NCBI GenBank assembly: GCA_964509605.1
Contig: CAZDXF010000002.1
Span: 89,514-153,513, forward strand
Reading direction: 5' to 3'
DNA from: an uncultured Candidatus Saccharibacteria bacterium
GTDB taxonomy: Bacteria; Patescibacteriota; Minisyncoccia; Phycocordibacterales; Zambryskibacteraceae
DNA length: 64,000 nucleotides
Of the stretch, positions 2,363-41,707 are shown piece by piece. The position numbers were made by a program, and so were the translations under genes. Position 1 is the stretch's first letter. The number at the start of each line of letters is the position of its first letter. Below the pieces are notes generated by a model. The model had not been told where the DNA came from. It ran no database searches and saw only the letters and a list, made by a program, of their open reading frames with translations.

Positions 2363-2971
2363 ATGGCTTACGTTTTAGGCTTCTTTGTTGCAGATGGAAA
2401 TATGATGGAGACAAATCGTGGAACATATTTTATTTCCTTTTATTCTGCAGATAGAGAGCTTATTCAGACAATCAAGAAGGCAATGGGTTCTGGGCATAAA
2501 ATTTCCGAAAGAAAAAGTGATATTGGTTCTGTATTTCGTATCCAAATAGGCAGTAAGGAAATATTTGAAGATTTTTTAAATTTAGGTCTGTGTCCGAGCA
2601 AGAGCCATCGTATTGAAATACCTAATGTTCCAAGAAAATTTGTGAAAGATTTTATTAGGGGGTATTTTGATGGAGATGGAAATGTTTGGGTTGGATATGT
2701 AAATAAGTATCGTAAAAAACCAACCCTTACAATACAAGTTTCTTTTACAAGTGTATCTTATGATTTCTTGTCTAATTTTCTGGGGCTTTTATGTTGTGGT
2801 GGAGTGAAGGGGGGTTACATTTATAGATCGAAAACAAAAAATTTTAGCAGGATATCTTTGAGTATTTTGGACTCTTTGAAACTTTATGAATTAATGTATA
2901 ATGTGCCTTGCCACTTGTTTTTAAAGAGGAAAAAGGTGGTTTTTGAAAAATTCATAAAAATGCGATCGTAG
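2363..2971 (+). CDS. LAGLIDADG-family homing endonuclease (double-motif)
   Basis: Two LAGLIDADG-type motifs: LGFFVADGN near the N-terminus and IRGYFDGDGNVWV mid-protein. Likely ATG start at 2363 (track start 2309 is an upstream GTG). TAG stop at 2969-2971 lies within positions 8-10 of the downstream tRNA. Confidence 0.8.
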   Translation: MAYVLGFFVADGNMMETNRGTYFISFYSADRELIQTIKKAMGSGHKISERKSDIGSVFRIQIGSKEIFEDFLNLGLCPSKSHRIEIPNVPRKFVKDFIRGYFDGDGNVWVGYVNKYRKKPTLTIQVSFTSVSYDFLSNFLGLLCCGGVKGGYIYRSKTKNFSRISLSILDSLKLYELMYNVPCHLFLKRKKVVFEKFIKMRS

Positions 2972-3243
2972 CTCAACTGGTTAGAGCACCCGCCTGTAGA
3001 TAATTGCAGCTTTTTATCGAAAGATAGATTGAAACTCTCTGGGATAACGGTGAAGGCTAAGTTTACCAATCGGTGAATATGCGAATACCGTGGGAACTCG
3101 TCATTATTAGACGAGAGCGCCGTAGAGACTAGATACCAGAGCGCCTAACAGGAAACTTAAGGTGAAGATATAGTCCACGCCATTATGAAAATAGTGGATC
3201 ACGTGCACGCGGGAGGTTGCCGGTTCAAGTCCGGTCGGTCGCG
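2962..3243 (+). tRNA. tRNA-Asp (anticodon GUC) interrupted by a 208-nt group I intron in the anticodon loop
   Basis: 5' exon GCGATCG-TA-GCTC-AACTGGTTA-GAGC-A-CCCGC-CTGT (2962-2997). 3' exon CAC-GCGGG-AGGTT-GCCGG-TTCAAGT-CCGGT-CGGTCGC-G (3206-3243). Spliced loop CTGTCAC gives anticodon GTC; G73 and G10 fit Asp identity; the G3:C70 pair argues against Ala. Confidence 0.8.
2998..3205 (+). ncRNA. Group I self-splicing intron (compact, tRNA-type; no internal ORF)
   Basis: 5' exon ends in U pairing with an IGS GCAG (P1); intron ends in G. R-like GAGACTAGA and exact S-element consensus AAGATATAGTCC form P7 (GACTA/TAGTC). A GAAA-tetraloop hairpin TATCGAAAGATA is present. Confidence 0.8.
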
Positions 3244-4845
3244 CATCAAGGGACGGAGTGAGGCGAAAGCTTCACTCTGTCTTTGTTTATCAAGGGTTTT
3301 TTCCAGTTCTAACCGTTTATATTCTTTTTCTATCGCTGGATAGTGATTTTGAATTGGAATAAACCATTCGTTAGGCAAAATAACGAGATTTCCGTCTTTT
3401 AGCGTGTAGTTCTGACCGAGTGCAGACAGTATCTCTCTTTTGGTCTCAAGACCGCCTTTACGGAACTCATTGAGAGCGTGGCAGGCAAAGATAAAGGTTT
3501 TCTCTGTGAGCTCAATCCAGTTCTCGGCTCTTTTCTCTGTGTCTCTCATTCTCTGGGATATTTCAGCCATCTGGCTTTGTAGTATTTTTCTTTCCTTCAA
3601 GAACTCCTCATCACTTATAAGCTCTCGGTATCTCATCTTGGTGAGGGTATCAAGCTGTTTTTGAGTATCAGCCAGTGTTTTGTGTTGGGTTTCGTATATA
3701 CGGGTCCTTTCCTCTATTTCCTTATCATTGTTTTTATTGAGTATCTCCAGAGCCCAGTCCTTGAATTGAGGAAGTATGGTTATTTTGGCAATCTCTTTTT
3801 CAATCTCTTCCTCAACTTTGCCTACAGGGACATATTTCTTCTGGGTGCATACGCAACCTTTCTTCCTTCTTGTGCAGTAGTAATACACGAAGGTTTTTAC
3901 TTCTCCTGTTTTCTTTATGATTTTTGTTTTCTCAATGGCTGTAATTGCACTCCCGCACTCGCCACACCTTATAATCCCAGTAAAAGGAAACTCGTGGGTC
4001 TTTGGTCTCGGCTTACCATCTCTACCAAGAAGCATTTGAACTCTGTCATACTCCTCAAGAGTAATCATTGGTTTGTGTTTACCTTGATATGTCCGTCCTC
4101 TGTATTGGAACAAGCCCGCATAGAATGGGTCTGTGAAGATGCGGTAAATAGTGCTTCTTGAAAGAGGTTTGCCACCCCTTCTTTTCATTTTCCTTGTTTG
4201 AAGACCCCACTCGTTAGTTGCGATTTCAAGTATTTTTGGAGGTGTATAGTTTCCAGTAAGCATAAGGTCCCACATCTTTCTGATGAGAGAAAATCTCTCT
4301 GGGTCATCTGTGATGTAGTTTTCTCCTCGGGCTTCTATTTTGGTATTCAAATATCCCAAAGGAGCTAAAATGGGAGCTTGTCCTTTCTCAAGCTTGCTAT
4401 CAATACCTCTTCGCACACCTTTCTTTAGGTCCAAGATAAACTGATTAGCAGAACCGCTCTCTACACTCAAAAGGAGAGCGTTGTCATCTGGTTTATATTC
4501 ACGATTGATTGTTCGGATAGATTTGATGATGCTTTGTTGTAGGAGCCATTGGATTTTTCCGCTATCAACTGGATTTCTGGATAAGCGGTTAATCTCCCAG
4601 CACAGGATGCCGTTCGCTTCTCCCGTCTCAATCCTCCTCAACATTTCATCAAAGATGGGTCGGTTATTTGGTTGCTTTGCAGATTTTGCCTCCGAAAGTA
4701 TTTCAACAATTTCCAGTCCAGCATCTTTGGCTAGTTTTGAAATATGATTTGTCTGGTCTCCTATGGATTGGACCTGTCTATCTTCGCTCTCTGATGATTT
4801 ACGAGCGTAGAGAAAGTATTTTATTGTTTCAGTGTCATTTTTCAT
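3199..4845 (-). CDS. Large serine recombinase (phage-type serine integrase)
   Basis: N-terminal resolvase catalytic domain (YARKSSESEDRQVQSIGDQ with catalytic Ser); recombinase domain; zinc ribbon CGECGS...C..C; C-terminal coiled coil. The last ~15 codons are antisense to the tRNA 3' exon. Confidence 0.85.
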   Translation of the reverse strand: MKNDTETIKYFLYARKSSESEDRQVQSIGDQTNHISKLAKDAGLEIVEILSEAKSAKQPNNRPIFDEMLRRIETGEANGILCWEINRLSRNPVDSGKIQWLLQQSIIKSIRTINREYKPDDNALLLSVESGSANQFILDLKKGVRRGIDSKLEKGQAPILAPLGYLNTKIEARGENYITDDPERFSLIRKMWDLMLTGNYTPPKILEIATNEWGLQTRKMKRRGGKPLSRSTIYRIFTDPFYAGLFQYRGRTYQGKHKPMITLEEYDRVQMLLGRDGKPRPKTHEFPFTGIIRCGECGSAITAIEKTKIIKKTGEVKTFVYYYCTRRKKGCVCTQKKYVPVGKVEEEIEKEIAKITILPQFKDWALEILNKNNDKEIEERTRIYETQHKTLADTQKQLDTLTKMRYRELISDEEFLKERKILQSQMAEISQRMRDTEKRAENWIELTEKTFIFACHALNEFRKGGLETKREILSALGQNYTLKDGNLVILPNEWFIPIQNHYPAIEKEYKRLELEKTLDKQRQSEAFASLRPLMRDRPDLNRQPPACT

Positions 4846-4984
4846 ATTAAAAACCCGAAAGGGACGGTCTGGTTGACCCAGATTACTTGCTCCAAAGGAG
4901 TAGCAATACTGGCAGACCGCCCCTCTCGGGTCAGTATTGTAATAAAAAATCCTTTGAACGCTTGTATCTGGGTCAACATAATCA

Positions 4985-5590
4985 TTATATCAATTTTTTA
5001 CGCTCAAGTTGAGTAAAGTGTCTATAAGATAAACTGGCTTGACCATATAGCTTATCAAGCTGTCTTTGTCTTCTGGTTGGCTTGCCTCTGTAATAAGGGC
5101 GTTTAATCTGGCTATTAAGCTCGTCAATTTTCTGCTCAAGAGTAAGAACATTAAATAAATGGAACATATTGTATCGGCGGTTCACATTTCTTGAGTTATA
5201 TGTGAGCTCGTAGCAATGGCGACAGGCAAAGTAATCTCCATCCTTGTAGAGAGTGCCTACTCGCTTGCCACAATATACGCCGTTTTTATACCACGGGCAG
5301 ATAAACCAGTATCGTTTGCCTCCGTATCGGCAAGGGGTAGAGGCGAGAGGTATCTTGTAGTCAAAGTTTTTCTTCTCGCCAGAGTAATTGTCTGTTTGGG
5401 TGTAATGGATACGGAGATAGTCATCACCATTCATTACAGACACCTCAATACCTACACTACTTTTGTTTTCACCCCACATACCGCTTCTGGTCCAAGTAAT
5501 CGTCCCAGACCTCCAGCCACAGAAGTAATCGTGCTTTTTGAGAAAGCTGGTGGCTATCTTTTTTACATCGTCTGCTTCGCTCTTGCTCAT
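4985..5590 (-). CDS. Hypothetical Cys-rich (putative zinc-binding) protein
   Basis: ORF of 201 aa with CxxC-like clusters (CPWYKNGVYCGK..CRHC); co-oriented with the integrase. Confidence 0.4.
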   Translation of the reverse strand: MSKSEADDVKKIATSFLKKHDYFCGWRSGTITWTRSGMWGENKSSVGIEVSVMNGDDYLRIHYTQTDNYSGEKKNFDYKIPLASTPCRYGGKRYWFICPWYKNGVYCGKRVGTLYKDGDYFACRHCYELTYNSRNVNRRYNMFHLFNVLTLEQKIDELNSQIKRPYYRGKPTRRQRQLDKLYGQASLSYRHFTQLERKKLI

Positions 5591-5716
5591 ATTCTTGCCG
5601 AAATCATTTGAGATTTACTCTTGTTATTTTTCTGGTAAAACGACCTTTTGTCTTTATGTTGCTTATTATTTTATCTATTCTGGCTCTTCCGATAAAATCC
5701 GATAACTTCTACAGTT

Positions 5717-6280
5717 TTACGAAACGAACCCATTTTCATTATCTATGGAGATGTCCGCATCTAATGCGAGGGGAGGTAAGACCTTCTCTCCATTTCTGGC
5801 TGACTGTAAACGCTGGAGCTCGTGTAGGGCTTTATACAACCTATTCTCAATCGCTATCTCATATCGCAAATATACGCTGGATAGCTTTTCCACCTCATCA
5901 TCGTGGATGCGTGGGATGTAGCCCTCATTTTCTACTATCGTTTCCGTTAAGCTTGGTAATAGTTCTTTGATTACTACCTTCCTGCGGTTAAGCTTGGACT
6001 GCATATACTCATTTTCTGCCTTTGCTACTCTGTGCAGTTTTAGGTAGTAAACTCCTATGCGGTCCACAAGCATCTTCTCCAACACTCCTACTGGGCTGAA
6101 ATGGTCATTGAGGCGTTCATTGATTTCCTTGTAGTAATCTCCTTCATATTCAGATACCAGTTCGTTCAGTATGCCGTGTTTGATGGCATTGTATTTGCTT
6201 ACAGCTTTACCTTCATCGGTTTTGACTCCGCCTTTTTTGGCGTTCTCTCGGTTAGCTTCAATCTGTTTTTGTGTTGTCAT
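5717..6280 (-). CDS. Hypothetical protein
   Basis: 187-aa ORF, co-directional, abuts the primase gene stop. Confidence 0.4.
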   Translation of the reverse strand: MTTQKQIEANRENAKKGGVKTDEGKAVSKYNAIKHGILNELVSEYEGDYYKEINERLNDHFSPVGVLEKMLVDRIGVYYLKLHRVAKAENEYMQSKLNRRKVVIKELLPSLTETIVENEGYIPRIHDDEVEKLSSVYLRYEIAIENRLYKALHELQRLQSARNGEKVLPPLALDADISIDNENGFVS

Positions 6281-6291
6281 ATTCTTATTTT

Positions 6292-8475
6292 TTAACTGTT
6301 ATTAAACTGTTTATCAGTATCATTTTCTTCCTCTGTGTTTTTCACCCCACTCTCTATTTCACTATTTTTATTGGTTTCAGAAAGCTGATATAGGGAGGAG
6401 GGGAAAATCATCATTTTGCGTTTGTCATTTGGGTCCTGTTCTTGAACGATAAGCCCTGCTGTCTCCAGCATAGGAAGTATCTGTTGTCGTAGCTGATGGC
6501 TATCAAGCATCCTTCCATACACCTCAAAATGTTTCTCAAGGAGCTCTTGGCGGGATAATCCAAGCTTGCCTGTAAGCTCTTCAAATACTTCGTTTCTGCC
6601 ATCATTCTTCGCCTCCCAAGCGGGTAGGATGACCTCTTTGTAGAGATTGTAGATGTAGGGTGGCAGGTTGAGCTCTTGGCTGACGGCTATCTTGTCCCAG
6701 AGCTTGAAAGCTTGATTGATGTCATCTTCATTGGCGATGATTGTGGACCCACTTCTTTCTCTCCACCAGACATTGAGAAGTGCAAACGATTTTATGAGAG
6801 ACAGAAGACGTTTGATGTCTCTTTGGTGTCTTGGTTTGAGCGTCTTGTTATTCCTCAAGAACCTTTCCTTGATTGTTTCGTGTGAGGCGATGTTTATATC
6901 TCTGATACCTTCCAGTTTGATGGCACGGATACGCTCTTTGAGTAGGGCTCGGTCTGGGTTTTCATCAAGCCAACTCACAAAACTCTCACTGTCTGCCTCT
7001 TTTCTGATTGTAGCGGTAATGCCTTGTTGTATTTTGTCTTGATTAACTTCTGGAGAAAGAAGTAAAAATCTCGTTGCTTCTTGCTCATCAATTTTTAGCC
7101 CTGCGGTGCAGAAGATGACCGATGGATAACCTCGCAAAAGAATGTTCTTTGTTTTCATCCCGAACTTCTGCGATTTATCAGTTATCTTCAAAGTAATCTC
7201 TTTCTTGTCGTGAGATAGGAGCGGTCTCAATCTGGCGAGGAGCTCATTGTGTGGCTGGTCCAGAAAGATAAGTATCTTGTGGGATAGGTCTACTAAGTAG
7301 CCATTCTTCTCTTTGTCGTATTGACCCGCATCGTGGAAGAAGGCGGTTGGAGAGCAGTAAGCAATCTCCATCACATCGTCTTGTGGGAATAGGCGGGCAA
7401 TCTCGGTTGGTATGTAGCTTTTACCTGTTGATGATGGGGCGTTGTAGCTGATGTTGAACTGCGAGTTCTCTGTATACGCTGATAGCTGACAGAGAAATGT
7501 CGCCAGCTTATTTTCTGCATCGTATTTAATGGTAAGACCGAGTGTCTCAATGAGTTTCTCGGAACTTATCGGAGCGAACTGGGCGGTATCAATTTTCTCT
7601 GGATACTCTTTTGCATATTTCTCAAACAAGTCATCAGCGGACCTTCCGAGTTTTATGATGTAATCGGTAATGTCTCCGTGTTCTCCAACTTCTTCTGGTA
7701 GCGTAATGATATAGGTCTCGTTTCCACCATTTTCCACCATTTTCGCCACACGCTCCGCTCCTTTCTTTCCAGCTTCGTCATTGTCAAAGCAGATGTAGAC
7801 CTTACTACCGTTCAGTATCTTTTTAACCCATTCTTCCTTGAAGGTCATCGCTCCGTGGGTAGAAGTGATTGCTGGCACTCCTTTAGCAAGTAGTAGTAAG
7901 CGGTCTAGCTCACCCTCACAGATTACGATTATTTTGTTCGCTTTTTCCGCAATCTCCCAATCATAGAGCTGTGCTTCTACTCCTTTCGGATAAGTTATTT
8001 TTTCATTGCCGAAAGCTGGGTCCTGTCGCAATTTGAAGAAGACATAATTGCCATAGACATCCTTAATAGGGATGGTAATCCACGGTTTGCGATAGAACTG
8101 TCCGTAGCCGATTTTGTATTCGTCTATCAGTGCATCAGTAAGTCCTCGTTTATGTAGATATTCTCTTATGCTTGGAGGTAGTGCTTTATGGCACTTCTCT
8201 ACAAGTTCTGCTGTAAATACATTTGTCTTGCGGGTTCTGGCTTCTGCTGTGTCGCCGAAATGTTTAGCTAATGTAGACAGGTTTCCTTTCTCTCCGCATT
8301 TCTTACAGTCATATTGTCCTGTCTCTGTGCTGAAATACAGGTGAGCTTCTTCGCCCTTACTATCCTTGTCGCAATCGTTGAAGAGGCATTTACTAATAAG
8401 CTCCTTACCACTCTCACGAAAGGGGATGCCTTTCTCGGTGAGATATTCTCGGATGTTAGTTTTAGTTAGGTTCAT
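6292..8475 (-). CDS. DNA primase-type replication protein (DnaG-like Zn finger + TOPRIM + P-loop NTPase)
   Basis: N-terminal CLFNDCDKDSKG..H..YDCKKCGEKG zinc-binding motif; TOPRIM IIVICEGELD...ICFDNDEAGKKG; Walker A APSSTGKSY. Confidence 0.75.
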   Translation of the reverse strand: MNLTKTNIREYLTEKGIPFRESGKELISKCLFNDCDKDSKGEEAHLYFSTETGQYDCKKCGEKGNLSTLAKHFGDTAEARTRKTNVFTAELVEKCHKALPPSIREYLHKRGLTDALIDEYKIGYGQFYRKPWITIPIKDVYGNYVFFKLRQDPAFGNEKITYPKGVEAQLYDWEIAEKANKIIVICEGELDRLLLLAKGVPAITSTHGAMTFKEEWVKKILNGSKVYICFDNDEAGKKGAERVAKMVENGGNETYIITLPEEVGEHGDITDYIIKLGRSADDLFEKYAKEYPEKIDTAQFAPISSEKLIETLGLTIKYDAENKLATFLCQLSAYTENSQFNISYNAPSSTGKSYIPTEIARLFPQDDVMEIAYCSPTAFFHDAGQYDKEKNGYLVDLSHKILIFLDQPHNELLARLRPLLSHDKKEITLKITDKSQKFGMKTKNILLRGYPSVIFCTAGLKIDEQEATRFLLLSPEVNQDKIQQGITATIRKEADSESFVSWLDENPDRALLKERIRAIKLEGIRDINIASHETIKERFLRNNKTLKPRHQRDIKRLLSLIKSFALLNVWWRERSGSTIIANEDDINQAFKLWDKIAVSQELNLPPYIYNLYKEVILPAWEAKNDGRNEVFEELTGKLGLSRQELLEKHFEVYGRMLDSHQLRQQILPMLETAGLIVQEQDPNDKRKMMIFPSSLYQLSETNKNSEIESGVKNTEEENDTDKQFNNS

Positions 8476-8677
8476 CTTGTTTAATGTTGTTTATAAGTTG
8501 TTGTTGGTCCTTTGAGATTTGCTCGTATTCTTTGTGGGTCATCGGCGTGTAGACGATAGACATCAACCGCAAGAGCTTGATGCCTTTGTCATAAGCATCT
8601 TCTCTGCTGATTTCTTTTCCAAAATGGCTCTTGTAGAGAGCTTGGAACTTTGCGATGTCTTCGTCTGCCAAAACCAT
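8462..8677 (-). CDS. Hypothetical small protein
   Basis: 71-aa ORF whose stop overlaps the primase start by 14 nt. Confidence 0.35.
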   Translation of the reverse strand: MVLADEDIAKFQALYKSHFGKEISREDAYDKGIKLLRLMSIVYTPMTHKEYEQISKDQQQLINNIKQDEPN

Positions 8678-8679
8678 AA

Positions 8680-9099
8680 CTATTCTGAATAGAGTTTATT
8701 TTTCAGTGCCTTGAGATGGTCAAAGAACGACCTTGCTTTGACTTCTAATCGGTCCGAGAAGTAGCGGTCTGCCACCTCTTCAATCCCATCTGCTTTCTGG
8801 AAGATAAAGAGGGCTTTTCTTGGGTTCTCTTTGTCCACGGATAAAAGCACAAAACCCGCACACAAAAGTGCGGTGGACACGCCGAGGTCATAGGTGGTCC
8901 ATACCACCGATGGGTCATCAAGTGGAATGTATCTCCACTCCTCGTCTCCAGATGACTTCCTTACTTTCTTATTTGTCATAGTAATTTGAGGTTTACTGAT
9001 AAACCAAAAAAGCCAACAAGTGTCGTCTTGTCGGCGTTGTGCGTTTGGAGATAAACAAAAAACCAAAGCAACAAACGCCAGTTCAAAACTGACATTCAT
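8680..9099 (-). CDS. Hypothetical protein with N-terminal hydrophobic/signal segment
   Basis: 139-aa ORF; MNVSFELAFVALVFCLSPNA signal-like start. Confidence 0.35.
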   Translation of the reverse strand: MNVSFELAFVALVFCLSPNAQRRQDDTCWLFWFISKPQITMTNKKVRKSSGDEEWRYIPLDDPSVVWTTYDLGVSTALLCAGFVLLSVDKENPRKALFIFQKADGIEEVADRYFSDRLEVKARSFFDHLKALKNKLYSE

Positions 9100-9260
9100 T
9101 GCTTTGGTCTCTTTAGTCGCCCATTAGACGGGCGAATTACCTATAAATCCTCTGCAAGTTTTTCCACCCACCATTCCCATAAAACGGGTATGCTTGGGTT
9201 TCAAAGATATTTAGCTTTCAAGGTGCATAGTAATTATAGGTGCTCTTGATTGCGTGTCAA

Positions 9261-10121: not shown

Positions 10122-10289
10122 AGTAATTTTCTCAAATTTACCCCTTTTGATGACACTTCACAATAGTGAGTAGGAAGAGGGGCAAAAATACCTTAAATCT
10201 GCTATTCTTTCATAGTAAGAGAAAAGACCATTTACGAAGCCATTTTTAGGTAAATCGTGGATGTCTACTGCGGAAACATTACAATTACT

Positions 10290-12092
10290 ATGAAAAACGA
10301 ATATCAAAAAGTAGAACAAGCAAAAGGTCGTCCGCTTCTCCAGTGGGTAGGCAAGAAACCACTTGAGAGTGTGCAGTTCTATCCCGCCCAAGAAATTGAA
10401 GTATATGGCGACAAGACCGCAAAGGATTTCAATAAACTATTTTGGGGAGATAATCTCCAAGTGCTCTCTCATCTTCTCAAGGACTATCGTGGAAAAATTG
10501 ATTTGATATACATTGACCCTCCGTTTGATAGCAAGGCAGATTATGTAAAAAAAGTAAAAGTTCGTGGGGAGCAGGTTGAAGGCATTGGACAAGGTCTACT
10601 TGAGGAAAAACAATACTCTGACATTTGGGAGAGAGATGAATACCTCCAATTTATGTATGAGCGATTATCGCTAATGAGGGAACTTTTATCTGAAACAGGC
10701 AGTGTCTATGTTCATATGGACGAGAAACGCTCCCACTATGTGAAAATCATCCTTGATGAAGTATTTGGTATTGAGAACTTCCAAAGAGAGATTGTGTGGG
10801 ATATTACAGTTTTGTCTGGTTTTAAGACGCAGGCAAATAACTGGATACGAGGACACGACACGATACTTTTTTACTCAAAATCACCTAACAAAAACTTCAA
10901 TAAACTATTTCTTCCACACCGAAAAGAGTATTTGGACCGTTTTAACAAAAAAGATAAAGATGGACGGCTCTACTTTGATGGACGAGGAGAAATTGTGTAT
11001 TTGGATGATGTCGTAAAAAAAGGTAAAAACATTGGAGATGTATGGAGTGATGTTATGTCCTTCCAACAAATACCCACTGCAAAAGAAAGAGTTGATTATC
11101 CTACTCAAAAACCTGAAGCTTTGCTTGAACGCATCATCAATGCTTCGTCAAAGGAGGGTGATATTGTTGCAGATTTTTTCTGTGGTTCTGGAACTACTCA
11201 AGTGGTGGCTCAAAAGCTCGGACGAAGATGGATTGGGTGCGACATAAACAAGGGAGCCATTCAGACATCTACAAAGCGTCTCAATCAAATCATTGAGGAA
11301 CAGCAGAGAGAGAAAATAAAGAACTTCAAGGGTTCTTACGGCTTCAAGGTTCTCAATGTGAACGATTATGATGTGTTCAAGAATGAGCTTATTGCGAAGG
11401 ATATTGTTATGGAGATGTATGGAGTGGAGCAAATAAAGCGAAGCTACTTTGACGGGCTGATGGGTAGAGATTTGGTGAAGATAATGCCGATGAACAGAGT
11501 GCTCAACAAAATGGATATAAGGAGTATCTTGAAAAACATCCAAGACAACATAAGCAACTTCACTGTGAAGACGAAATCAAAAGCGAAGGAAGCCGTATAC
11601 GAAGAGAAAGTCCGCATTATCTGTTCTGGAGTTGAATATGATGTCCCTCACTTCTTGAGAAAGGAAAATAAAACTGGAGTAGTGGTGGAAATCAACGATG
11701 TGCTCTCTGCTACGAAGGAACTTGTTTTCAAGGAATACCCAGAGTCAAAAATTGAGCTCAAGGTTAAGAATAAGAAGCTCTCTGTTGATATAAAAGAGTT
11801 CTACTCTCCGCTTCTGATGAGAAAGCTTGAGATTGAAAACCAGAAGGCGCTTAAAAAAGAAAGCCAGACGAAGGTAAAGGACTTCAAGCAAATCATTGAT
11901 AGCGTAGCTATTGATGTGGACTACAACGGCAAGCTGTTCAACGCAGAGATAATGGACCTGCCAGACAAGAAGGAGGTTATCAAAGCCAAGTATTCTTGGG
12001 ATTATCCAAAGAAGGGCAAATATACTGTCGCCATAAAAATTGTTGATGTGCTCGGAGAAGAATACTTTGAGACATTTGATGTAAACGCATAA
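10290..12092 (+). CDS. Type III restriction-modification methyltransferase (Mod), beta-class N6A/N4C MTase
   Basis: Motif IV IDLIYIDPPFDS precedes motif I DIVADFFCGSGTT (beta-class order). Likely ATG at 10290 (track start 10257 is GTG). Immediately followed by a Res-like gene. Confidence 0.8.
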   Translation: MKNEYQKVEQAKGRPLLQWVGKKPLESVQFYPAQEIEVYGDKTAKDFNKLFWGDNLQVLSHLLKDYRGKIDLIYIDPPFDSKADYVKKVKVRGEQVEGIGQGLLEEKQYSDIWERDEYLQFMYERLSLMRELLSETGSVYVHMDEKRSHYVKIILDEVFGIENFQREIVWDITVLSGFKTQANNWIRGHDTILFYSKSPNKNFNKLFLPHRKEYLDRFNKKDKDGRLYFDGRGEIVYLDDVVKKGKNIGDVWSDVMSFQQIPTAKERVDYPTQKPEALLERIINASSKEGDIVADFFCGSGTTQVVAQKLGRRWIGCDINKGAIQTSTKRLNQIIEEQQREKIKNFKGSYGFKVLNVNDYDVFKNELIAKDIVMEMYGVEQIKRSYFDGLMGRDLVKIMPMNRVLNKMDIRSILKNIQDNISNFTVKTKSKAKEAVYEEKVRIICSGVEYDVPHFLRKENKTGVVVEINDVLSATKELVFKEYPESKIELKVKNKKLSVDIKEFYSPLLMRKLEIENQKALKKESQTKVKDFKQIIDSVAIDVDYNGKLFNAEIMDLPDKKEVIKAKYSWDYPKKGKYTVAIKIVDVLGEEYFETFDVNA

Positions 12093-12096
12093 TCAT

Positions 12097-14640
12097 ATGG
12101 ATAGTTTTTTCTTACAAAATATCCAGAAACAAGTAGCTGACTGGCGAGCTGGTGGCTACGATGGCGTGCAGAAAGAGACAGAGACGATACTAAACCACAT
12201 CCGAAGGGTTGCTTTCTTGCACGAGCCACAGATAGAGGCGTTGGAGACATACATCTACCTCAAAGAGATAGTTGGCAACAAGCCATCCGTTGAGGTGTTC
12301 AAGAAGTCCTTTGAAAGTGAGTTGGATTTTATCCGTGCTCTGGGTCTTTCTGATAAAGAGGCGTTTGAACTTGCTTACGATAAAAAGAAGGACGAAAAGA
12401 TACAAGCAATTCTGGATGAGAAGTTCGGGACCTCCGACTATGCAAATCAGGTCTACGCTCTCACTATGGGTTCGGGCAAAACGATTTTGATGGCGGTGAT
12501 GATGCTGTATGATTTTGTTCTTTCCTTCTATCACAAAGATGACGAACGCTTTGCCAAGAACGCCCTTATTTTTGCTCCAGATACAACAATCATAGAGAGC
12601 TTGAAAGAGATAAAGACATTTGATTACTCACGGGTTCTGCCGAGAGAGTATGAGAACATCATTTTGAATATAAAGTATCACTATCTTGAAAGCACAGACA
12701 CCGCTCTGGCTCCAGTCGGAAACTATAATGTCATTGTCTCTAACTCACAGAAAATAATCCTCAAGACAAGAAATGGTAATGGCGATAATCATTCAGCACG
12801 GCTTTTTGGAGACAGAAATGAGATGGAGAAACGAGAGGTTGAAAATATGCGTTTGCAAGCCATTCGCCAACTCTCATCTCTCCAGATTTTTGTAGATGAA
12901 GCTCACCACTCATATGGAAAGACACTTGAGGGAACTTTGAAGAAGACGAGACAAACGATTGATTATCTTCACAAGCATACTCCTCTTGTTTCCGTTATAA
13001 ACCTCACTGGAACGCCTTATGTAAACAATAAGATGATTTCCGATGTGGTCTATCACTTCGGTCTTAAAGCAGGTATTGAAAAAGGTATTTTGAAGCAGGT
13101 CCGCATTTTGGATTATGGAACAGTAAGGTCCCAGAAGTTCGTTGAGGAAGTCGTTGATACCTTCATTTCTGAATACGGGACGAAACGGCTTGAAGGGCGA
13201 TTGCCGAAGATAGCTTTCTATGCACCAAGCATTAGTGATTTGCGAGAGGATTTGAAGCCGAAGCTGGAGCGTATCCTTTCTGAAAAAGGTATGTCTACAC
13301 AATCCATTTTGGAGTATCACACCGAAGCAGAAGATAATGCCGATGATTTCAAACAGCTTGATACAGCCGAAAGCAAAAAGCAGTTTATTCTTCTTGTCGG
13401 CAAAGGGACCGAAGGATGGAACTGCCGTTCTCTTGTCTCTGTGGCTCTGTATAGGAAGCCAAAGAGCACAATCCTTGTCCTACAATCAACTACAAGATGT
13501 CTGCGTGCCATTGGAGATAACTCCACTCGTGCCAGCATCTTCTTATCAAAAGACAATTATAAAATCCTTGATAAAGAGCTCAAGAATAACTTTGCCTCAA
13601 GCATCAGTGAGCTGAATGCTCAAGACCAGAAAATGGTTGAACACACTCTTGAGGTTGAGAAGCGGACTACCATCAAAGTAAAGAAGGTTCTCAAGGATAT
13701 TTTGGCTGTTAAGGAAACAAGCCCAGAGAAAATAAAAATTGATTTCAAGAAGTTTGATGCTGGACAGTATCAATCATTTGTAAGTGAGGGAGGTGTATTT
13801 ATCGGAGACGAAGGTAAGGCAAGATATTCAGAAGCTCGTGCTAAAGGAAGAATAAAAGATAGAGCAGATTTTACCTTTTATGAAATAGCCGAAATAATAA
13901 ACCGCTATACTCATCTACCTTGTTTATCCATAGAAGCTATTATCACTGGGAGTGGAAAGAAGCGTGAGCAATTTGTTGAGATGGTAAACGAGACCCCAGC
14001 TCTGCTTACATTTGTTATTCAAGAAATACTCAACAGTGCTTTCAAATATGAAGAGAAGACCGAAACAGTGGAAGAAGAGCTTGAGCTGACTAAACTGTTT
14101 CCATTCAAAATCAGTGTTCAGCAAGGCAGAAGTGGACTTGTAGTATATAGAGAAGCCGAAGCAGAAGAAGGGCGAAAGGGTCGTCTTGGTTTCCACATCA
14201 ATCCATACGCATTTGATAGCGGTGATGAGAAGGATTTGTTCAGATACTTGAGGGATGTTCTTGATAAGAAGGAGGTTATCAAGGATATTTATTTCACAGG
14301 TGCTCGTGTTTGCTCGGACCCAAGCAGAACTGATTTCTATTTTGAATACTGGAGCCCAGAACAAAACAGAGTAGCCAGATACTTTCCAGATTTTCTTATT
14401 GAGACAAACAAACGCTTTATTGTTGTAGAGACAAAGGGTGGAGATGAGAAAGCGGATTATGAGGCAAATAAGAAATCATATAAGGGTAAAGTGGAAGATG
14501 TAAGAAATGAAGTGTTTGCGAAAGAGCTTGGATTTAACGAGTTTCAGAGCATAAATAAAAACTTTGAGTATCGCATTATCTTTGATGCTACTCTCCAGCG
14601 AGAACAGGTGAGATTGTATGAGGAGCTAATAAATAGATAA
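12097..14640 (+). CDS. Type III restriction enzyme (Res): SF2 helicase + C-terminal PD-(D/E)xK nuclease
   Basis: Walker A TMGSGKT, DEAH box FVDEAHHS, motif LTGTPY; C-terminal YFPDFLIETNKRFIVVETKG nuclease motif. Confidence 0.8.
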   Translation: MDSFFLQNIQKQVADWRAGGYDGVQKETETILNHIRRVAFLHEPQIEALETYIYLKEIVGNKPSVEVFKKSFESELDFIRALGLSDKEAFELAYDKKKDEKIQAILDEKFGTSDYANQVYALTMGSGKTILMAVMMLYDFVLSFYHKDDERFAKNALIFAPDTTIIESLKEIKTFDYSRVLPREYENIILNIKYHYLESTDTALAPVGNYNVIVSNSQKIILKTRNGNGDNHSARLFGDRNEMEKREVENMRLQAIRQLSSLQIFVDEAHHSYGKTLEGTLKKTRQTIDYLHKHTPLVSVINLTGTPYVNNKMISDVVYHFGLKAGIEKGILKQVRILDYGTVRSQKFVEEVVDTFISEYGTKRLEGRLPKIAFYAPSISDLREDLKPKLERILSEKGMSTQSILEYHTEAEDNADDFKQLDTAESKKQFILLVGKGTEGWNCRSLVSVALYRKPKSTILVLQSTTRCLRAIGDNSTRASIFLSKDNYKILDKELKNNFASSISELNAQDQKMVEHTLEVEKRTTIKVKKVLKDILAVKETSPEKIKIDFKKFDAGQYQSFVSEGGVFIGDEGKARYSEARAKGRIKDRADFTFYEIAEIINRYTHLPCLSIEAIITGSGKKREQFVEMVNETPALLTFVIQEILNSAFKYEEKTETVEEELELTKLFPFKISVQQGRSGLVVYREAEAEEGRKGRLGFHINPYAFDSGDEKDLFRYLRDVLDKKEVIKDIYFTGARVCSDPSRTDFYFEYWSPEQNRVARYFPDFLIETNKRFIVVETKGGDEKADYEANKKSYKGKVEDVRNEVFAKELGFNEFQSINKNFEYRIIFDATLQREQVRLYEELINR

Positions 14641-14644
14641 AGCT

Positions 14645-15469
14645 ATGGACGAGGAAAAGAAAATAACTAAAAAGAAGGCAGTCATTTATACCATTGTAAT
14701 TGGGGTTGTCGCTTTTATAGCTGGAACTTTTATCGTGGATTACTCGGAATACGAAGAATACGGCTCTTATAGCACTGACAACTGCAATGTTTTAGCTTTT
14801 TCTGTAAACGGCTACTTAAGCACTTATATGCCACAGAACCCAGAAGAGTATATGACAGACATTTCTTCATCAGAGGATATTGTGGATGGCATACAAATTG
14901 CACAAGATGACCCAGATATAAAAGCAGTCATATTATCAGTGGACTCTGGTGGAGGAGATGGTGTTGCTGGAGAAGAGGTTGCTAATGCATTGAAATGGTT
15001 GAGTAAACCCAGTGTCGCAGTGATAAGAGGGTTAGGTGCTTCCTCGGCATATTGGGCATCTACTGGAGCTGACAAGATATACGCATCCAAGATATCCGAT
15101 GTCGGAAGTATCGCTATCACAATGTCTTATCTTGATGAGACAAAAAAGATAGAGCGTGAGGGTTATCAATACACAGAACTGTCATCGGCAAAGTATAAGG
15201 ATTTAGGAGACCCAAGCAGACCTCTAACTGCCGAAGAGAGAGCGATAATAATGTCTGATTTGCAGAAGGCACACAAAGTTTTTGTTGAAAGTGTTTCTGT
15301 AAACAGAGGTTTGGATATAAAAGAGATTGAAAAATTGGCAAACGGGCTGACCTATATAGGCGAAGATGCTTTGAGATATGGGTTGATTGATGAGATTGGA
15401 GATTTTCTATCTGCTAAAAAGTATATTGAGGAGCAAATAGGAGAAAAAGCAGAGATTTGCTGGTATTGA
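14645..15469 (+). CDS. S49-family serine peptidase (SppA/ClpP-like), membrane-anchored
   Basis: N-terminal TM helix; AVILSVDSGGGDGVAGEEVANAL and GLIDEIGDF S49 hallmarks; starts 4 nt after Res stop. Confidence 0.7.
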   Translation: MDEEKKITKKKAVIYTIVIGVVAFIAGTFIVDYSEYEEYGSYSTDNCNVLAFSVNGYLSTYMPQNPEEYMTDISSSEDIVDGIQIAQDDPDIKAVILSVDSGGGDGVAGEEVANALKWLSKPSVAVIRGLGASSAYWASTGADKIYASKISDVGSIAITMSYLDETKKIEREGYQYTELSSAKYKDLGDPSRPLTAEERAIIMSDLQKAHKVFVESVSVNRGLDIKEIEKLANGLTYIGEDALRYGLIDEIGDFLSAKKYIEEQIGEKAEICWY

Positions 15470-15990
15470 TAAACACAATGACAAAACTTTACATACTAAT
15501 TGGAATACTTATTGCTCTCGGGGTTGTAATTGAACTCTTTAGGAGCGGAGGCAAAGAAGAGAGAAGGTATCAATATAAGCAGAAGAACTTTTTTATGTCT
15601 CGGGCAGAGCACGAGTGCTACGATGCCCTTACTATTGCCGTTGGAGAGAAGTATCACATCTTTCCTCAAGTTCATCTGCCGTCAATCGTAGACAATAAGG
15701 TTGTGGGTCAAAATTGGCACGGAGCCTTCCGCCACATAAGCCAGAAGTCGGTTGATTTCGTTTTGTGCGACAAAGCTTACATATCACCGAAACTTGCTAT
15801 TGAGCTTGATGATAGAACTCACGAAAGAAGGGACCGAAAGGAAAGGGATGTTGAGGTTGAGAGGGTCCTAAAGGATGCTGAACTACCTCTTTTGAGATTG
15901 GAAAATCACGGACGATTTAACCCCAGCGAGCTTACTGAAAAAATAAATACCATCCTAAACAATGGTGAAAACAAGGGTGGGGTGAAATAA
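15457..15990 (+). CDS. DUF2726/DUF559-like (Vsr/PD-(D/E)xK-fold) domain protein with N-terminal TM helix
   Basis: Motif pattern VDFVLCD...AIELDDRTH typical of the DUF2726/Vsr-like fold; overlaps the S49 gene by 13 nt. Confidence 0.55.
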   Translation: MLVLINTMTKLYILIGILIALGVVIELFRSGGKEERRYQYKQKNFFMSRAEHECYDALTIAVGEKYHIFPQVHLPSIVDNKVVGQNWHGAFRHISQKSVDFVLCDKAYISPKLAIELDDRTHERRDRKERDVEVERVLKDAELPLLRLENHGRFNPSELTEKINTILNNGENKGGVK

Positions 15991-15992
15991 AG

Positions 15993-16184
15993 ATGGTTCA
16001 TATAAACCCAGAGACAGTTCAAGAGTTCAAACAAACAATTAAAGAGGAGTATGGAGTTGAGTATTCTGATAAGGAAGCTTGGGAAGCTATGCACAACCTT
16101 GTCGGATTTTTTGACCTACTTTTGAAAATGGATAGGAGACAAAACCCAGAGCTTTATAAAAGAAAAGATACTAAAGATGGATGA
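15993..16184 (+). CDS. Hypothetical small acidic protein
   Basis: 63-aa ORF packed between neighbours (2-nt gap upstream, 8-nt overlap downstream). Confidence 0.35.
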   Translation: MVHINPETVQEFKQTIKEEYGVEYSDKEAWEAMHNLVGFFDLLLKMDRRQNPELYKRKDTKDG

Positions 16185-16968
16185 TTATCTCGTTATATAC
16201 ACAGATGGCTCTTCTGCTCCAAAACCAAGACGGGGTGGAGTTGGTTTCAGAATGATTTTCCCAAGTGGAAAAGTTAGGGATTTTTCTCCGTATGGATATT
16301 CTGGAGCGACTAATAATGAGATGGAGTTGCAAGCGTGCATACTGTCTTTAAGAGAGGTGGTAAAACTTGATGATTTGGAAGGAGCAAAGGGTGTCGTTGT
16401 ATGCACTGACTCTCAATATGTTGTTAGCAACTATAAAAACGCAATGTTTTCTTGGGTAAATCAGAAATGGATGAGAAGCAATGGAGAGCCCGTATTAAAT
16501 GCACAGCAGTGGAAAGAGCTTTTGAGATTGATGAAGCGTATAGGAGACCGTTTTCGCATTTATGTCTCTTTTGAAAAAGTAGAAGCCCATTCGGGAGTTG
16601 AGGATAATGAAGCGGTAGACAAGCTTGCCAAGCGTTCTCGCAAGGGTCCATTATCTACAATTAAAATATCGGTGAGCAATGTTCGCAGAAGTAAAACAAA
16701 AAGTAAAACTATAAAAGGTAGTATTAGGGGAGAAGGTCAACGGCTTCGTATTCGTGTCGTAAGCGGGAGTTGGTTGAGTGTGCAAAAATTGTATCGCTTG
16801 AGGTGTGAGGTGCTTTCAAAGAAAAGTGAATATTTCAGTAAAATGGATTTTATTCTTTCAGAGGAGATGATGAGAGCTGGTCATATTTATGATGTTGTCT
16901 TGATGGACGGGCTGGACCATTGCCGTGTAAAAAAGTTAATAGGCGAAGTTAAAACCCCTACTAAATAG
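16177..16968 (+). CDS. rnhA: Ribonuclease HI domain fused to a ~110-aa basic C-terminal domain of unknown function
   Basis: RNase H catalytic residues in YTDGS, NNEMELQA, CTDSQYV and EAHSGVEDNEAVDKLA; the C-terminal half is Lys/Arg-rich with no recognisable domain. Confidence 0.7.
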   Translation: MDDYLVIYTDGSSAPKPRRGGVGFRMIFPSGKVRDFSPYGYSGATNNEMELQACILSLREVVKLDDLEGAKGVVVCTDSQYVVSNYKNAMFSWVNQKWMRSNGEPVLNAQQWKELLRLMKRIGDRFRIYVSFEKVEAHSGVEDNEAVDKLAKRSRKGPLSTIKISVSNVRRSKTKSKTIKGSIRGEGQRLRIRVVSGSWLSVQKLYRLRCEVLSKKSEYFSKMDFILSEEMMRAGHIYDVVLMDGLDHCRVKKLIGEVKTPTK

Positions 16969-17053
16969 TGAAATCAAAGGTGGGTATATAGATGGTTGTA
17001 TCATTTCCTCTCTCAAATCCAGTTCTGATGTTGTTCACTAGCCCGCGCAAGCG

Positions 17054-17091
17054 AAAATCCGAGTATCGTGTGATACTCGGATTTTTGTTTT
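17054..17091 (+). terminator. Rho-independent terminator
   Basis: AATCCGAGTATC-GTGT-GATACTCGGATT followed by TTTGTTTT. Confidence 0.7.
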
Positions 17092-17142
17092 GCAAAAAGG
17101 CTCAATATTCTATAATATTTAAGCCGTTCTTTTGAATTATGT

Positions 17143-17218
17143 GCCAATGTAGCTCCCCGAAGGAGTCGCTATGCGCGACTCTACGGGGCAGGCAGTAGAC
17201 TTTTTAGTACACTGCCTG
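17143..17218. repeat. Orphan 13-nt copy of the tRNA-Thr 5' end followed by two perfect hairpins
   Basis: gccaatgtagctc (17143-17155) equals the first 13 nt of the tRNA at 17240. Followed by CCCCG-aag-GAGTCGC-tat-GCGACTC-ta-CGGGG (17155-17188) and CAGGCAGT...ACTGCCTG (17189-17218). Confidence 0.6.
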
Positions 17219-17239
17219 AATCTGAATTTGTCAGATTAA

Positions 17240-17495
17240 GCCAATGTAGCTCAGTTGGTAGAGCACCCCCATGGTGGATCGTATGATTCTGCCCAGCCAA
17301 GAGGCAACTTTTGGATGAATCCCGAATAACGGTTAAAGTCCTATTAAGATGGATCAGACCGTGGCGCCAAGGCGCCCGAACGACTGACAAGGGTTCGCCC
17401 AGCGCGAAAAGATACAGTCTAGTCTTCTCATATAAAGAAAAGAGAAGTGTAAACGAAGGGGGAGGTCATCGGTTCAATCCCGATCATTGGCTCCA
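17240..17495 (+). tRNA. tRNA-Thr (anticodon GGU) interrupted by a 180-nt group I intron; CCA encoded
   Basis: 5' exon GCCAATG-TA-GCTC-AGTTGGTA-GAGC-A-CCCCC-ATGGT. 3' exon AA-GGGGG-AGGTC-ATCGG-TTCAATC-CCGAT-CATTGGC-T-CCA. Spliced anticodon loop ATGGTAA. Confidence 0.75.
17276..17455 (+). ncRNA. Group I intron (very compact, 180 nt), homologous to the intron at 2998..3205
   Basis: Exon-terminal U pairs with an IGS GCCA. P7 pairing GACTG/CAGTC within R-like cgACTGAcaa and S-like AAGATACAGTCT. Shares the ATAACGGT.AA motif with the first intron. GGCGCC-AA-GGCGCC hairpin. Ends in G. Confidence 0.65.
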
Positions 17496-17505
17496 AGATT
17501 ATTCT

Positions 17506-17580
17506 GGCCACCTTAGCTCAGTTGGTAGAGCGACGGTATCGTAAACCGTAGGTCCGCAGTTCGATCCTGCGAGGTGGCTC
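17506..17580 (+). tRNA. tRNA-Thr (anticodon CGU)
   Basis: GGCCACC acceptor paired with GGTGGCT; anticodon arm ACGGT-ATCGTAA-ACCGT; T-arm CGCAG-TTCGATC-CTGCG. Confidence 0.85.
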
Positions 17581-41689: not shown

Positions 41690-41707
41690 CGGGAACTGCA
41701 GAAGATT

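Follow-up and report, generated by a model that had tools for sequence, protein, structure and literature searches.

The stretch of DNA analyzed here (the window) comprises 64,000 nt of contig CAZDXF010000002.1 (assembly GCA_964509605.1, positions 89,514-153,513), and all coordinates given below are window-based. Near one end of the window, two transfer RNA (tRNA) genes, tRNA-Asp(GTC) and tRNA-Thr(GGT), each interrupted by an intron, are separated by 14 kb of DNA that contains genes for a large serine recombinase (LSR; hereafter the integrase, int), a primase and a restriction-modification (R-M) pair. A first-pass annotation had described this interval as one integrated element of about 14 kb. 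The comparisons reported below lead us to conclude, with high confidence in the account as a whole, that positions ~3246-17043 are a single 13.8-kb integrative element, plasmid-like in character and inserted at the 3' end of tRNA-Asp, in a chromosome of the Paceibacteria type (Patescibacteria, or Candidate Phyla Radiation, CPR).

The exons of tRNA-Asp(GTC), read from the sequence, lie on the plus strand at 2962-2997 and 3206-3245 and are separated by an intron of 208 nt (2998-3205, plus) at anticodon-loop position 35/36. Exon 2 contains the 3' strand of the acceptor stem (3236-3242), the discriminator G (3243) and the final CA (3244-3245). The tRNA-Thr(GGT) gene, which is the next host gene after the insertion site, occupies 17240-17495 (plus), with exons at 17240-17275 and 17456-17495 and an intron of 180 nt (17276-17455) at position 36/37. 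Neither split gene was called when the unspliced sequence was scanned with ARAGORN and Rfam at default settings. When the exons were joined in silico, ARAGORN called canonical tRNA-Asp(gtc) and tRNA-Thr(ggt) cloverleafs, which confirms the two intron-containing genes that had been recognized by eye. The tRNA-Asp intron matched the Rfam group I family (RF00028, Intron_gpI) with 47.2 bits (E = 6.5e-11), just missing the gathering score of 50, and the tRNA-Thr intron was not detected by Rfam. The latter is proven by the spliced cloverleaf and by the contiguity of the two Thr exons in L017, a Zambryskibacteria metagenome-assembled genome that is the closest relative found for the host locus and carries an intron-less allele. 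Group I introns have been described in Patescibacteria at 35/36 of tRNA-Asp and tRNA-Asn and also at 36/37 of tRNA-Thr, where they are termed "divergent" and are missed by both RF00028 and ARAGORN (PMC13011429). The introns of the window agree with both classes, and by analogy with this description the tRNA-Thr intron would be a divergent group I intron. The words recombinase and integrase do not occur in that paper, so neither is mentioned there at these tRNAs. The introns are real, already known, bacterial features of the host, which flank the element and lie outside it. An archaeal origin, to which intron-containing tRNAs might have pointed, was rejected because the Asp intron matches group I, the Thr intron corresponds to a class known from Patescibacteria and the relatives of the locus are Patescibacteria.

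The host locus was compared with 80 loci from Paceibacterota and relatives, taken from species-representative genomes and anchored on a clade-specific 218-aa (amino acid) host gene located just upstream of the element (1118-1774). The relatives retrieved through this gene are Patescibacteria genomes, and their ancestral order is gatA-hyp-tRNA-Met-tRNA-Met-tRNA-Asp-tRNA-Thr(GGT)-tRNA-Thr(CGT)-(VTT)-RF2-ftsE-ftsX-pyrG. The spacer between tRNA-Asp and tRNA-Thr(GGT) measures 120 nt in L039, 138 nt in L019, 449-540 nt in L065 and L009, 1-7.7 kb in other loci and 14 kb in the window. The empty junction suggested as a check on the insertion does exist, in the form of unoccupied sites with spacers of 120-138 nt (L039, L019). 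Homologues of the Mod, Res, SppA, DUF2726 and RNase H proteins of the window were found between the two tRNAs in none of the 80 anchored loci, and none of these genomes carries a close homologue of the integrase (at least 45% identity) at this place. On the basis of the 80-locus comparison, everything between the two tRNAs is therefore extra DNA at a known hotspot.

The borders were located by comparison with L017, whose identity to the window is 92% over tRNA-Asp and the intron within it and extends to position 3244. About 150 nt further on, L017 contains a second, partial tRNA-Asp 3' end (…TCAAGTCCGGTCGGCCGCGCA), after which come a hairpin and TTTTGCAAA; this stretch aligns to the window from 17044 onward. 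The global alignment of 17044-17239 with L017 scored 102.5, as compared to 64.9 ± 6.7 for shuffled sequences (z about 5.6), while similarity was absent over the 200 nt that precede the attR core (56.0 as compared to 55.3 ± 7.0). The homology stops at the hexamer CGCGCA that ends tRNA-Asp (attL core, 3240-3245, plus) and resumes exactly at its repeat (attR core, 17044-17049, plus). Where the site is unoccupied, an A, a hairpin and a T-run come after tRNA-Asp, as is found to the right of CGCGCA at 17044-17049. This pattern, together with the L017 alignment, places the displaced native terminator of tRNA-Asp at 17050-17095 (plus; the B' side, host DNA), and the distance between the two cores gives the element a size of about 13,804 bp. 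Immediately before the attR core, positions 17021-17043 (plus) hold the P arm AGTTCTgatgTTGTTCACtagcc, which fits the family consensus described below. The 11-mer ACTAGCCCGCG, found at the attR of L131, is identical to 17037-17047 and occurs once in the window, where 0.19 matches with up to one mismatch are expected by chance. A repeat search over 2900-17600 returned only generic tRNA similarity, the 6-bp core being below detectable length.

The earlier description of a single element between the split tRNAs was therefore retained, with its right border moved to 17044-17049, short of tRNA-Thr. A right border at tRNA-Thr itself, or at a palindrome at 17155-17188, was rejected because the L017 alignment makes 17050-17239 host DNA. 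The use of L017 as a virgin empty site was rejected as well, since it carries a relic of about 150 nt of an element of the L003 type.

The integrase gene (3199-4845, minus) encodes 548 aa in the integrated state and runs antisense across the whole 40-nt exon 2 of tRNA-Asp and 7 nt of the intron, in agreement with the overlap of about 45 nt noted in the first-pass annotation. Its product contains the Pfam domains PF00239 (Resolvase, 1.7e-15 over aa 11-156), PF07508 (Recombinase, 4.1e-9) and PF13408 (Zn_ribbon_recom, 3.4e-11), the last two in its C-terminal part, and matched the phrog_95 integrase family with 7.5e-66. It also matched the solved structures of SPbeta SprA and A118 (the A118 C-terminal domain chains 4kis/6dnw over aa 218-430) and, weakly, the NCBIfam models of XisF and CcrB. 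Residues Y13, R15, S17, S18 and R23, invariant in an alignment of 12 integrases, are retained in the window. The protein has the full architecture of a large serine recombinase; a housekeeping resolvase, which had been named as the alternative to be checked, is not what Pfam, PHROG, NCBIfam or the solved structures indicate.

More than 4,500 homologues of this integrase were found, the top 120 at 59-83% identity, and the few that bear a name are almost all labelled Patescibacteria or Parcubacteria. Genomic contexts were obtained from look-ups and from 80 loci retrieved by a metagenome scan, and the rule described here was checked on about 90 loci, a subset of the homologues. The identifiable neighbours of the int 3' end are antisense tRNA 3' ends of Asn, Asp, Gln, Glu, His, Ser and Trp, and a tRNA T-arm was seen at this junction in 62 fetched loci belonging to seven amino-acid classes. 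Because the int 3' end overlaps the antisense tRNA 3' end, the proteins finish with tails such as …RDRPDLNPQPP, the antisense translation of the T-arm. Integrase subclades track the target tRNA, and conserved element sequence starts 2-5 nt past the tRNA terminus with GTGYACGAA (GGGACGRA in the Asp clade), a hairpin and a T-run.

The far end was mapped in four other members of the family. Three of them are inserted in tRNA-Asp: L003 (~9.3 kb) ends with a 21-nt repeat of the tRNA end and carries a csoR/copA copper operon; L007 (~10.5 kb; cargo not annotated) ends with an 18-nt repeat followed by the native terminator; and L131 (~7.9 kb), an independent element at the same tRNA as that of the window, ends with the 11-mer mentioned above and carries toxin-antitoxin (TA)-like and other cargo. 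The fourth, L175, is inserted in tRNA-Gln (~14.5 kb), has an attR of the family type and contains Mod, Res, SppA and two tRNA genes.

Circular forms were also observed. L114 is a circular contig of 10,383 bp, with an exact terminal overlap of 88 nt and an intact attP, …AGTTCTaacatTGTTCACagtgc-GGAGCCA|ATGTGCACGAATAG…, and L109 is a permuted copy of it (99.9% identical). The circle encodes an integrase, a DUF5659 protein, a homologue of the 71-aa protein of the window, a rolling-circle Rep-like protein, a helix-turn-helix (HTH) protein, Mod and Res. Junctions of the attP type with the same P-arm consensus were found in 8 more loci, their cores (GGAGCCA, CCAGCCA, CCCGCCA, GCGCCA) being tRNA 3' ends, and these loci cluster with integrated relatives at the matching tRNAs. 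The circular junction product that had been suggested as a second check on mobility was therefore found, in this case for the sibling element L114.

By joining the left part of attR to the right part of attL, the attP of the window was reconstructed as …AGTTCTgatgtTGTTCACtagcc-CGCGCA|TCAAGGGACGGAG… (in shorter spellings, …TGTTCACTAGCC-CGCGCA-TCAAGGGACGG… and …AGTTCTGATGTTGTTCACTAGCC-CGCGCA-TCAAGGGACGGAGTGAGG…) and the corresponding attB as …GTTCAAGTCCGGTCGGT-CGCGCA-AGCGAAAATCCGAG…, while exon 2 of tRNA-Asp constitutes the B arm of attL. The borders of the family share the motif AGTTCT-N5-TGTTCAC-N5 followed by a core that copies the tRNA 3' terminus, and the right border of the window fits it. 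In 37/37 CCA-ending tRNAs the distance between the T-loop GTTCRAA of the B arm and the tRNA end is 23 nt, and GTTCTAA of the P arm lies 28 nt from the core end in all nine sites with a CCA-type core. In the window, where tRNA-Asp encodes …GCA and not …GCCA, the B arm has GTTCAAG (starting at 3223) 22 nt from the core end and the P arm has GTTCTGA 27 nt from it, which again gives an offset of 5 bp. A motif that is present in both attP and attB, and 5 bp nearer the centre in attB, is the signature of the zinc-ribbon domain (ZD) site of the Listeria LI integrase, and the same 5-bp shift has been reported for most other LSR systems examined (PMC3783163). If the ZD motif is placed as in that system (attP half-site 16-24), the crossover dinucleotide would lie within the 6-7-bp core, a few bases short of the end of the tRNA.

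The P' arm (3246-3300, plus) contains a hairpin (3252-3281) and a T-run (3282-3290) and on the other strand encodes the C-terminal …AFASLRPL of the integrase. Covariation in the hairpin was evaluated on an explicit 9-pair structure, which replaced the automatic RNAalifold consensus that left out two loop-proximal pairs, with 45 distinct sequences and 500 shuffles. Paired cells amounted to 86.7% as compared to 73.1% after shuffling, and double-sided changes to 49 as compared to 14.2; both values were reached in 0/500 shuffles. The covariation score was 0.404, with respect to 0.156 for shuffles and at most 0.192 for slid registers. When read on the tRNA-sense strand, G.U pairs (~37 cells) outnumber A.C cells (~10). 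Covariation and the excess of G.U over A.C point to an RNA fold on the tRNA transcript, and the hairpin and T-run are best interpreted as a putative replacement tRNA terminator embedded in the …AFASLRPL codons of int.

The same hairpin is one of two imperfect palindromes, at 3252-3281 and 17155-17188, that had been taken for recombinase-binding att arms with the half-site GGAGT(G/C). Both palindromes are present, but they were rejected as paired att arms, because the left one is the covarying hairpin and the right one lies in host DNA. The host DNA around the right palindrome has features of its own. At 17146-17188 a 13-nt copy of the tRNA-Thr(GGT) 5' end (GCCAATGTAGCTC) stands just upstream of the palindrome, and within the palindrome itself the acceptor end of tRNA-Asp recurs in inverted orientation (TGCGCGAC). 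In many relatives (for example L041, L067 and L085) an inverted partial tRNA-Asp 3' end is located just past the native terminator. Such inverted copies could be a relic, the B' arm of attB or a pairing partner in the precursor transcript.

These data suggest the following mechanism. The integrase would have joined the attP of a circular element to the 3' end of tRNA-Asp(GTC), which would have served as attB, with its T-loop and acceptor strand as the B arm and its last nucleotides, CGCGCA, as the core. The tRNA remains intact because the attP core copies its terminal nucleotides. The tRNA terminator has been displaced by 13.8 kb, to 17050-17095, and the element would supply a substitute hairpin and T-run within the 3' coding end of int. 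The C-terminal tail of the integrase itself depends on recombination: the last 13 residues of the integrated form (548 aa, …LRPLMRDRPDLNRQPPACT) differ from the last 27 of the excised form (562 aa, …LRPLMRGLVNN…), and this tail is a possible sensor of the integration state.

The interior of the element consists of two divergently transcribed halves, separated by an intergenic region of 168 nt (10122-10289). The genes from 10121 down to 3199 all point toward tRNA-Asp, as had been described, and include a 727-aa primase with zinc ribbon, Toprim and a P-loop-like motif; they are predicted to serve replication, regulation and recombination. The rightward operon is predicted to be cargo. Its first gene encodes Mod, a Type III-like beta-class N6/N4 methyltransferase (10290-12092, plus; PF01555, 3e-53), which matched the PADLOC model MTase_III (PDLC03633, 2e-71, profile positions 75-608/616) and has DPPF ahead of FCGSG (FxGxG). 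The adjacent gene encodes Res, a subunit of the superfamily 2 helicase type (12097-14640, plus; PF04851 ResIII, 2.9e-8), in which GSGKT, DEAH and a C-terminal PD…ExK-like motif were read from the sequence. Res matched the NCBIfam BPTD_3080 restriction-endonuclease family with 1.3e-23, far below the cut-off, and no relative was found in the PDB. Of the Type III R-M pair claimed in the first-pass annotation, Mod is supported by its PADLOC and Pfam matches, and Res, with the ResIII match and the weak NCBIfam match, is a candidate restriction subunit. The operon continues on the plus strand with an SppA-type S49 peptidase (14645-15469; Peptidase_S49, 4.4e-30; TIGR00706, 151 bits) that has an N-terminal hydrophobic segment, a nuclease-like DUF2726 protein (15457-15990; PF10881, 2.3e-28), a 63-aa open reading frame (ORF; 15993-16184), also called as a gene in L002, with a weak winged-helix match (HTH_33, E = 0.002, sub-cut-off), and an RNase HI-domain protein with a C-terminal extension of ~100 aa (16177-16968; RNase_H, 6.4e-28; NCBIfam RNase HI), which is the last cargo gene. 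PADLOC returned nothing for Res, SppA, DUF2726 and RNase H.

The divergent arrangement could also result from a composite locus, in which a ~7-kb int/primase element (3246-~10200), the only mobile part, lies beside an independent, integrase-less R-M islet (10200-17043). Such a reading would account for the wholly different cargo of other members (the copper operon of L003, the TA-like genes of L131) and for the variable length of the Asp-Thr interval in relatives, and it would fit the observation that DUF2726 and RNase H are not seen in other elements. However, the family P arm and core are found after the RNase H gene (17021-17049) and not near 10.2 kb, and reading of the divergent region (10122-10289) revealed neither CGCGCA nor any tRNA-like or att-like remnant. 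In the circular L114, Mod and Res are held between the P arm and the module. Mod and Res at 60-69% identity sit divergently beside the module in L099, L101, L109, L114 and L126 (tRNA-Asn), and Mod homologues at 60-71% identity are module-linked in these five and in L169 and L175. The last two share the backbone of the window (primase 84-86%, DUF5659 71-88%, Res 83% and Mod 68-71% identity), and in L175 an SppA protein, 69% identical, follows Res; thus Mod-Res(-SppA) stands on the same backbone at a different tRNA. Also the tight packing from Mod to RNase H, with gaps of 0-8 nt or overlaps, speaks against a composite origin, which we consider very improbable. The missing att remnant, the L114 circle and the L169/L175 linkage accordingly led us to reject a border that would separate the int module from the R-M genes.

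The R-M pair is therefore regarded as part of the single element, because it is flanked by the module and the P arm, is inside the L114 circle and is module-linked in relatives; it probably serves defence and/or addiction. DUF2726 and RNase H would belong to the element by their position inside the P arm. L169 and L175 carry a different integrase (38% identical), which in L170, L171 and L175 is located at tRNA-Gln; since the backbone is shared and the integrase is not, the integrase, replication and cargo modules appear to be exchangeable. The L175 element also contains a tRNA-Arg(TCT) and a tRNA-Phe(GAA) gene (943-1091), which lie between attR and the gene for the S49 peptidase. These two tRNA genes were seen in L129 as well (132-280), several kb upstream of the module, in a locus where attR was not mapped.

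In the leftward module, the replication protein of 727 aa (6292-8475, minus) has a DnaG-type zinc ribbon and a Toprim domain in aa 1-290 and a Walker-like region in its C-terminal part. It matched Pfam Toprim_2, the PHROG DNA primase and primase/helicase families and DnaG structures in the PDB. The C-terminal half gave no Pfam family match at E up to 1; its Walker A-like (NAPSxTGKS) and Walker B-like (LIFLD) motifs are invariant in 26 homologues. The AlphaFold model is confident for aa 1-290 only and unreliable for aa 294-520. Homologues of this protein number 2,470, the top 120 at 70-86% identity. At the position of the primase, L114 encodes instead a 376-aa protein (7604-8734) that matched the filamentous-phage G2P initiator family PF05144 with 22.4 bits, just above the cut-off. 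From its gene content the element is probably able to replicate on its own.

The other genes of the module, all on the minus strand, are small. The first encodes a 286-aa protein (9261-10121) with a C-terminal CxxC…CxxC, a conserved ATTACTATTACTATG-type leader and no Pfam family match. It is followed by DUF5659 (8680-9099; PF18903, 3.8e-10), conserved in the module and, besides int and the primase, its sole annotated gene, and by a 71-aa protein (8462-8677), without a Pfam match, which gave tblastn matches in most family loci and is among the most widely detected small genes of the module. Directly after the 286-aa gene there is a perfect sigma-70 consensus, TTGACA-16-TATAAT (9233-9260, minus), and a long hairpin (9062-9108) overlaps the annotated start of DUF5659. 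Together these features suggest that a promoter lies within the module and that the DUF5659 gene is shorter than annotated; with homologues of 96-99 aa, its true start is probably internal. Beyond the primase gene are two conserved proteins, of 187 aa (5717-6280) and 201 aa (4985-5590), with tblastn homologues in family loci, in many of them for the 201-aa protein, which had no family match in Pfam, PHROG or NCBIfam. A 47-aa ORF (4842-4985) overlaps the int start; it had no Pfam match, and ORFs of 47-57 aa are called at the same position in L001, L003, L008 and L173. That it might encode a recombination directionality factor (RDF) is pure speculation. Even when matches with E values of up to 1 were considered, Pfam provided no useful family assignment for the small proteins of the module.

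The int and primase layout devoid of structural genes had led to a comparison with phage satellites or integrative mobilizable elements. The layout itself is as described, and positive support for a satellite is lacking. A satellite or cryptic provirus, packaged by a helper phage in the manner of P4 or of phage-inducible chromosomal islands (PICIs), would employ the S49 peptidase in capsid maturation. This protein indeed matched the PHROG "head maturation protease" with 1.7e-46, and integrase and primase both match phage PHROG families. On the other hand, the peptidase scores as SppA by TIGR00706 and has the hydrophobic N-terminal segment mentioned above, and neither of two scans of a viral contig collection, one with the primase and one with the integrase alignment, returned relatives. 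Capsid, terminase, portal and capsid-redirecting genes were not found by Pfam, PHROGs and NCBIfam among the element proteins. Moreover, L114 has in place of this replication module a rolling-circle Rep, which is typical of plasmids. For these reasons we consider a satellite rather unlikely. Relaxase, coupling-protein and type IV secretion system families were likewise not found by Pfam and NCBIfam among the element ORFs, four of which are unannotated, and some route of transfer from cell to cell is presumed.

The single integrative element described here may still be active, or it may be a fixed remnant, that is, an old insertion inherited vertically with an integrase that is inactive or co-opted. 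Decay does occur at this locus in relatives: L017 contains (1410-1567) an integrase-less filler of ~150 nt ending in an L003-type P arm and the 21-nt tRNA-Asp 3' repeat, and just past tRNA-Asp L061 retains a P'-like hairpin and L022 the P-arm-like motif AAACTAGCCC. A remnant would also be compatible with the host-like composition of the element and with the absence of excision evidence for this copy. It is at odds with module ORFs that are all full-length with respect to their homologues, with an integrase that keeps Y13, R15, S17, S18 and R23, and with attL and attR sites that fit the family consensus; in addition, the finding of a close integrase homologue in 0/80 anchored genomes argues for a recent and sporadic acquisition. 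A fixed remnant is therefore unlikely.

Several observations weigh against our account of a mobile, self-replicating element and have to be set beside the evidence in its favour. There is no direct evidence of excision of this copy, circles and attP junctions having been seen in siblings, and the circularity of L114 could in principle reflect a tandem array. The identity core is only 6 bp long, so that the borders rest on cross-locus comparison and not on a repeat. The base composition that had been proposed as a check gave no island signal, either in GC content (40.8% vs. 39.5%) or in GC skew. Exact look-ups of the window proteins yielded nothing but Logan contigs of a single sample, SRR15237813, and these break at or near the tRNA exons and are uninformative on occupancy. 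As regards the gene content, Res fails the PADLOC REase models and its NCBIfam match is sub-cut-off; DUF2726 and RNase H homologues were not found in the other family members examined; the C-terminal half of the primase cannot be modelled (predicted local distance difference test, pLDDT, below 50); and no RDF, partition system or origin was identified in the element.

Integrative islands at tRNA genes are classic, and tyrosine integrases are their usual agents. Like Islander-type islands and the integrative plasmids pSAM2 and SLP1, the element of the window integrates at a tRNA 3' end and restores the gene, has int beside the tRNA and combines int with a replication module and variable cargo; also shared is the displaced piece of tRNA at the far end, which measures 18-21 nt in L003 and L007. 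It differs from tyrosine-integrase islands in that its recombinase belongs to the unrelated serine family and the block of identity is reduced to 5-6 bp (window, L131), and from pSAM2 in that conjugation or spread genes were not detected. Serine integrases at t(m)RNA genes have been described as rare (14/297, or 4.9%) and "not reported previously" (PMC7192596). With respect to the known large serine integrases (A118/LI, SPbeta SprA, phiC31, Bxb1, CcrAB and XisF), the protein of the window has the same three-domain architecture and an equally short identity between attL and attR (6 bp), and its P and B arms share one motif placed 5 bp further out in attP, as in the ZD motifs of LI. Insertion at a gene 3' end that leaves the gene intact is known also from SCCmec at rlmH. 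What sets the family apart is that it targets the tRNA 3' terminus and is diversified over at least seven tRNA classes, that int runs antisense into the tRNA with a hairpin/terminator in its coding sequence, and that similarity to characterised serine integrases is low (E about 1e-9 to SprA).

The tycheposons of Prochlorococcus resemble the element: they occur in streamlined genomes, combine a tRNA-specific integrase with replication genes (primase/helicase) and with cargo for defence or ecological functions, have integrase clades that track tRNA targets and leave relics beside the tRNA. Among tycheposon-type elements, 910/937 use tyrosine recombinases (bioRxiv 10.1101/2020.12.28.424599), whereas the present family is entirely made of LSRs and belongs to another host phylum, and no PICI-like versions with capsid genes were seen in it. 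The likeness to tycheposons and to actinomycete integrative plasmids would be one of function, the element being a member of neither family. P4-like satellites and PICIs share with it the int and primase(-helicase) core, the small size, defence cargo and frequent tRNA adjacency, but here packaging or capsid-remodelling genes and viral-database relatives were not found, the integrase family is another one and the replication module can be exchanged for a Rep.

The single island is in itself ordinary, and the novelty lies in features of the family. Mobile elements of Patescibacteria are poorly charted, and genetic tools for these bacteria are very few. In the literature searched we found no description of this family, of its tRNA-terminus rule, of the embedded hairpin or of the circular forms; automated island databases may hold members. 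In the window one such element is fully delimited, with both att sites defined, attP and attB reconstructed, and modules and cargo mapped, and it illustrates the movement of Type III R-M systems between CPR genomes. Public data contain more than 4,500 homologues of the integrase and about 2,500 of the primase, so that the family appears abundant, and it breaks the usual rule that integration at tRNA genes is the work of tyrosine integrases. We find it quite possible, though we put it forward only tentatively, that these proteins form a very large Patescibacteria clade of serine integrases specialised on tRNA 3' termini, in which the T-loop acts as the ZD motif of attB, the core mimics the last 6-7 nt (often including CCA) and so eases retargeting, the int tail is state-dependent, the terminator is embedded in int and the modules are exchangeable. 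Such elements may then be a major vehicle of gene flow and of R-M and defence traffic in CPR bacteria, and their integrases and replicons could serve as genetic tools for the phylum. The regular att architecture (T-loop motif, 5-bp shift and core copying the tRNA terminus) makes target prediction straightforward, and compact serine integrases aimed at near-universal tRNA ends could interest genome engineers, while the embedded terminator and the recombination-dependent int tail provide testable ideas on regulation.

Other features were observed around the element. Three segments of the window have a higher GC content (27000-29000, 41000-42000 and 46000-47000; 0.47-0.55 as compared to a background of ~0.39), in which no rRNA or other Rfam family was reported at the gathering threshold. 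Upstream of the insertion site, two tandem tRNA-Met(CAT) genes (1869-1940 and 2001-2074), conserved in the ancestral tRNA cluster, are separated by a strong hairpin (1947-1978) that resembles a minus-strand terminator. Directly 5' of tRNA-Asp there is an ORF for a LAGLIDADG homing endonuclease (2309-2971, plus; PF14528, 2.3e-13), which is free-standing, lies outside the intron and ends 10 nt into the 5' exon of the tRNA. Its homologues occupy the same place in L013, L131, L033, L035, L047 and L077, and the copy of L017 is mostly deleted. Finally, further genes or gene fragments for serine recombinases, with 36-38% identity to the integrase of the window, are located at or near tRNA-Thr(CGT) (L009, ~11640-13123; L017, ~2843-3139), and the neighbouring tRNAs of the cluster thus seem to be targeted by other recombinase clades.

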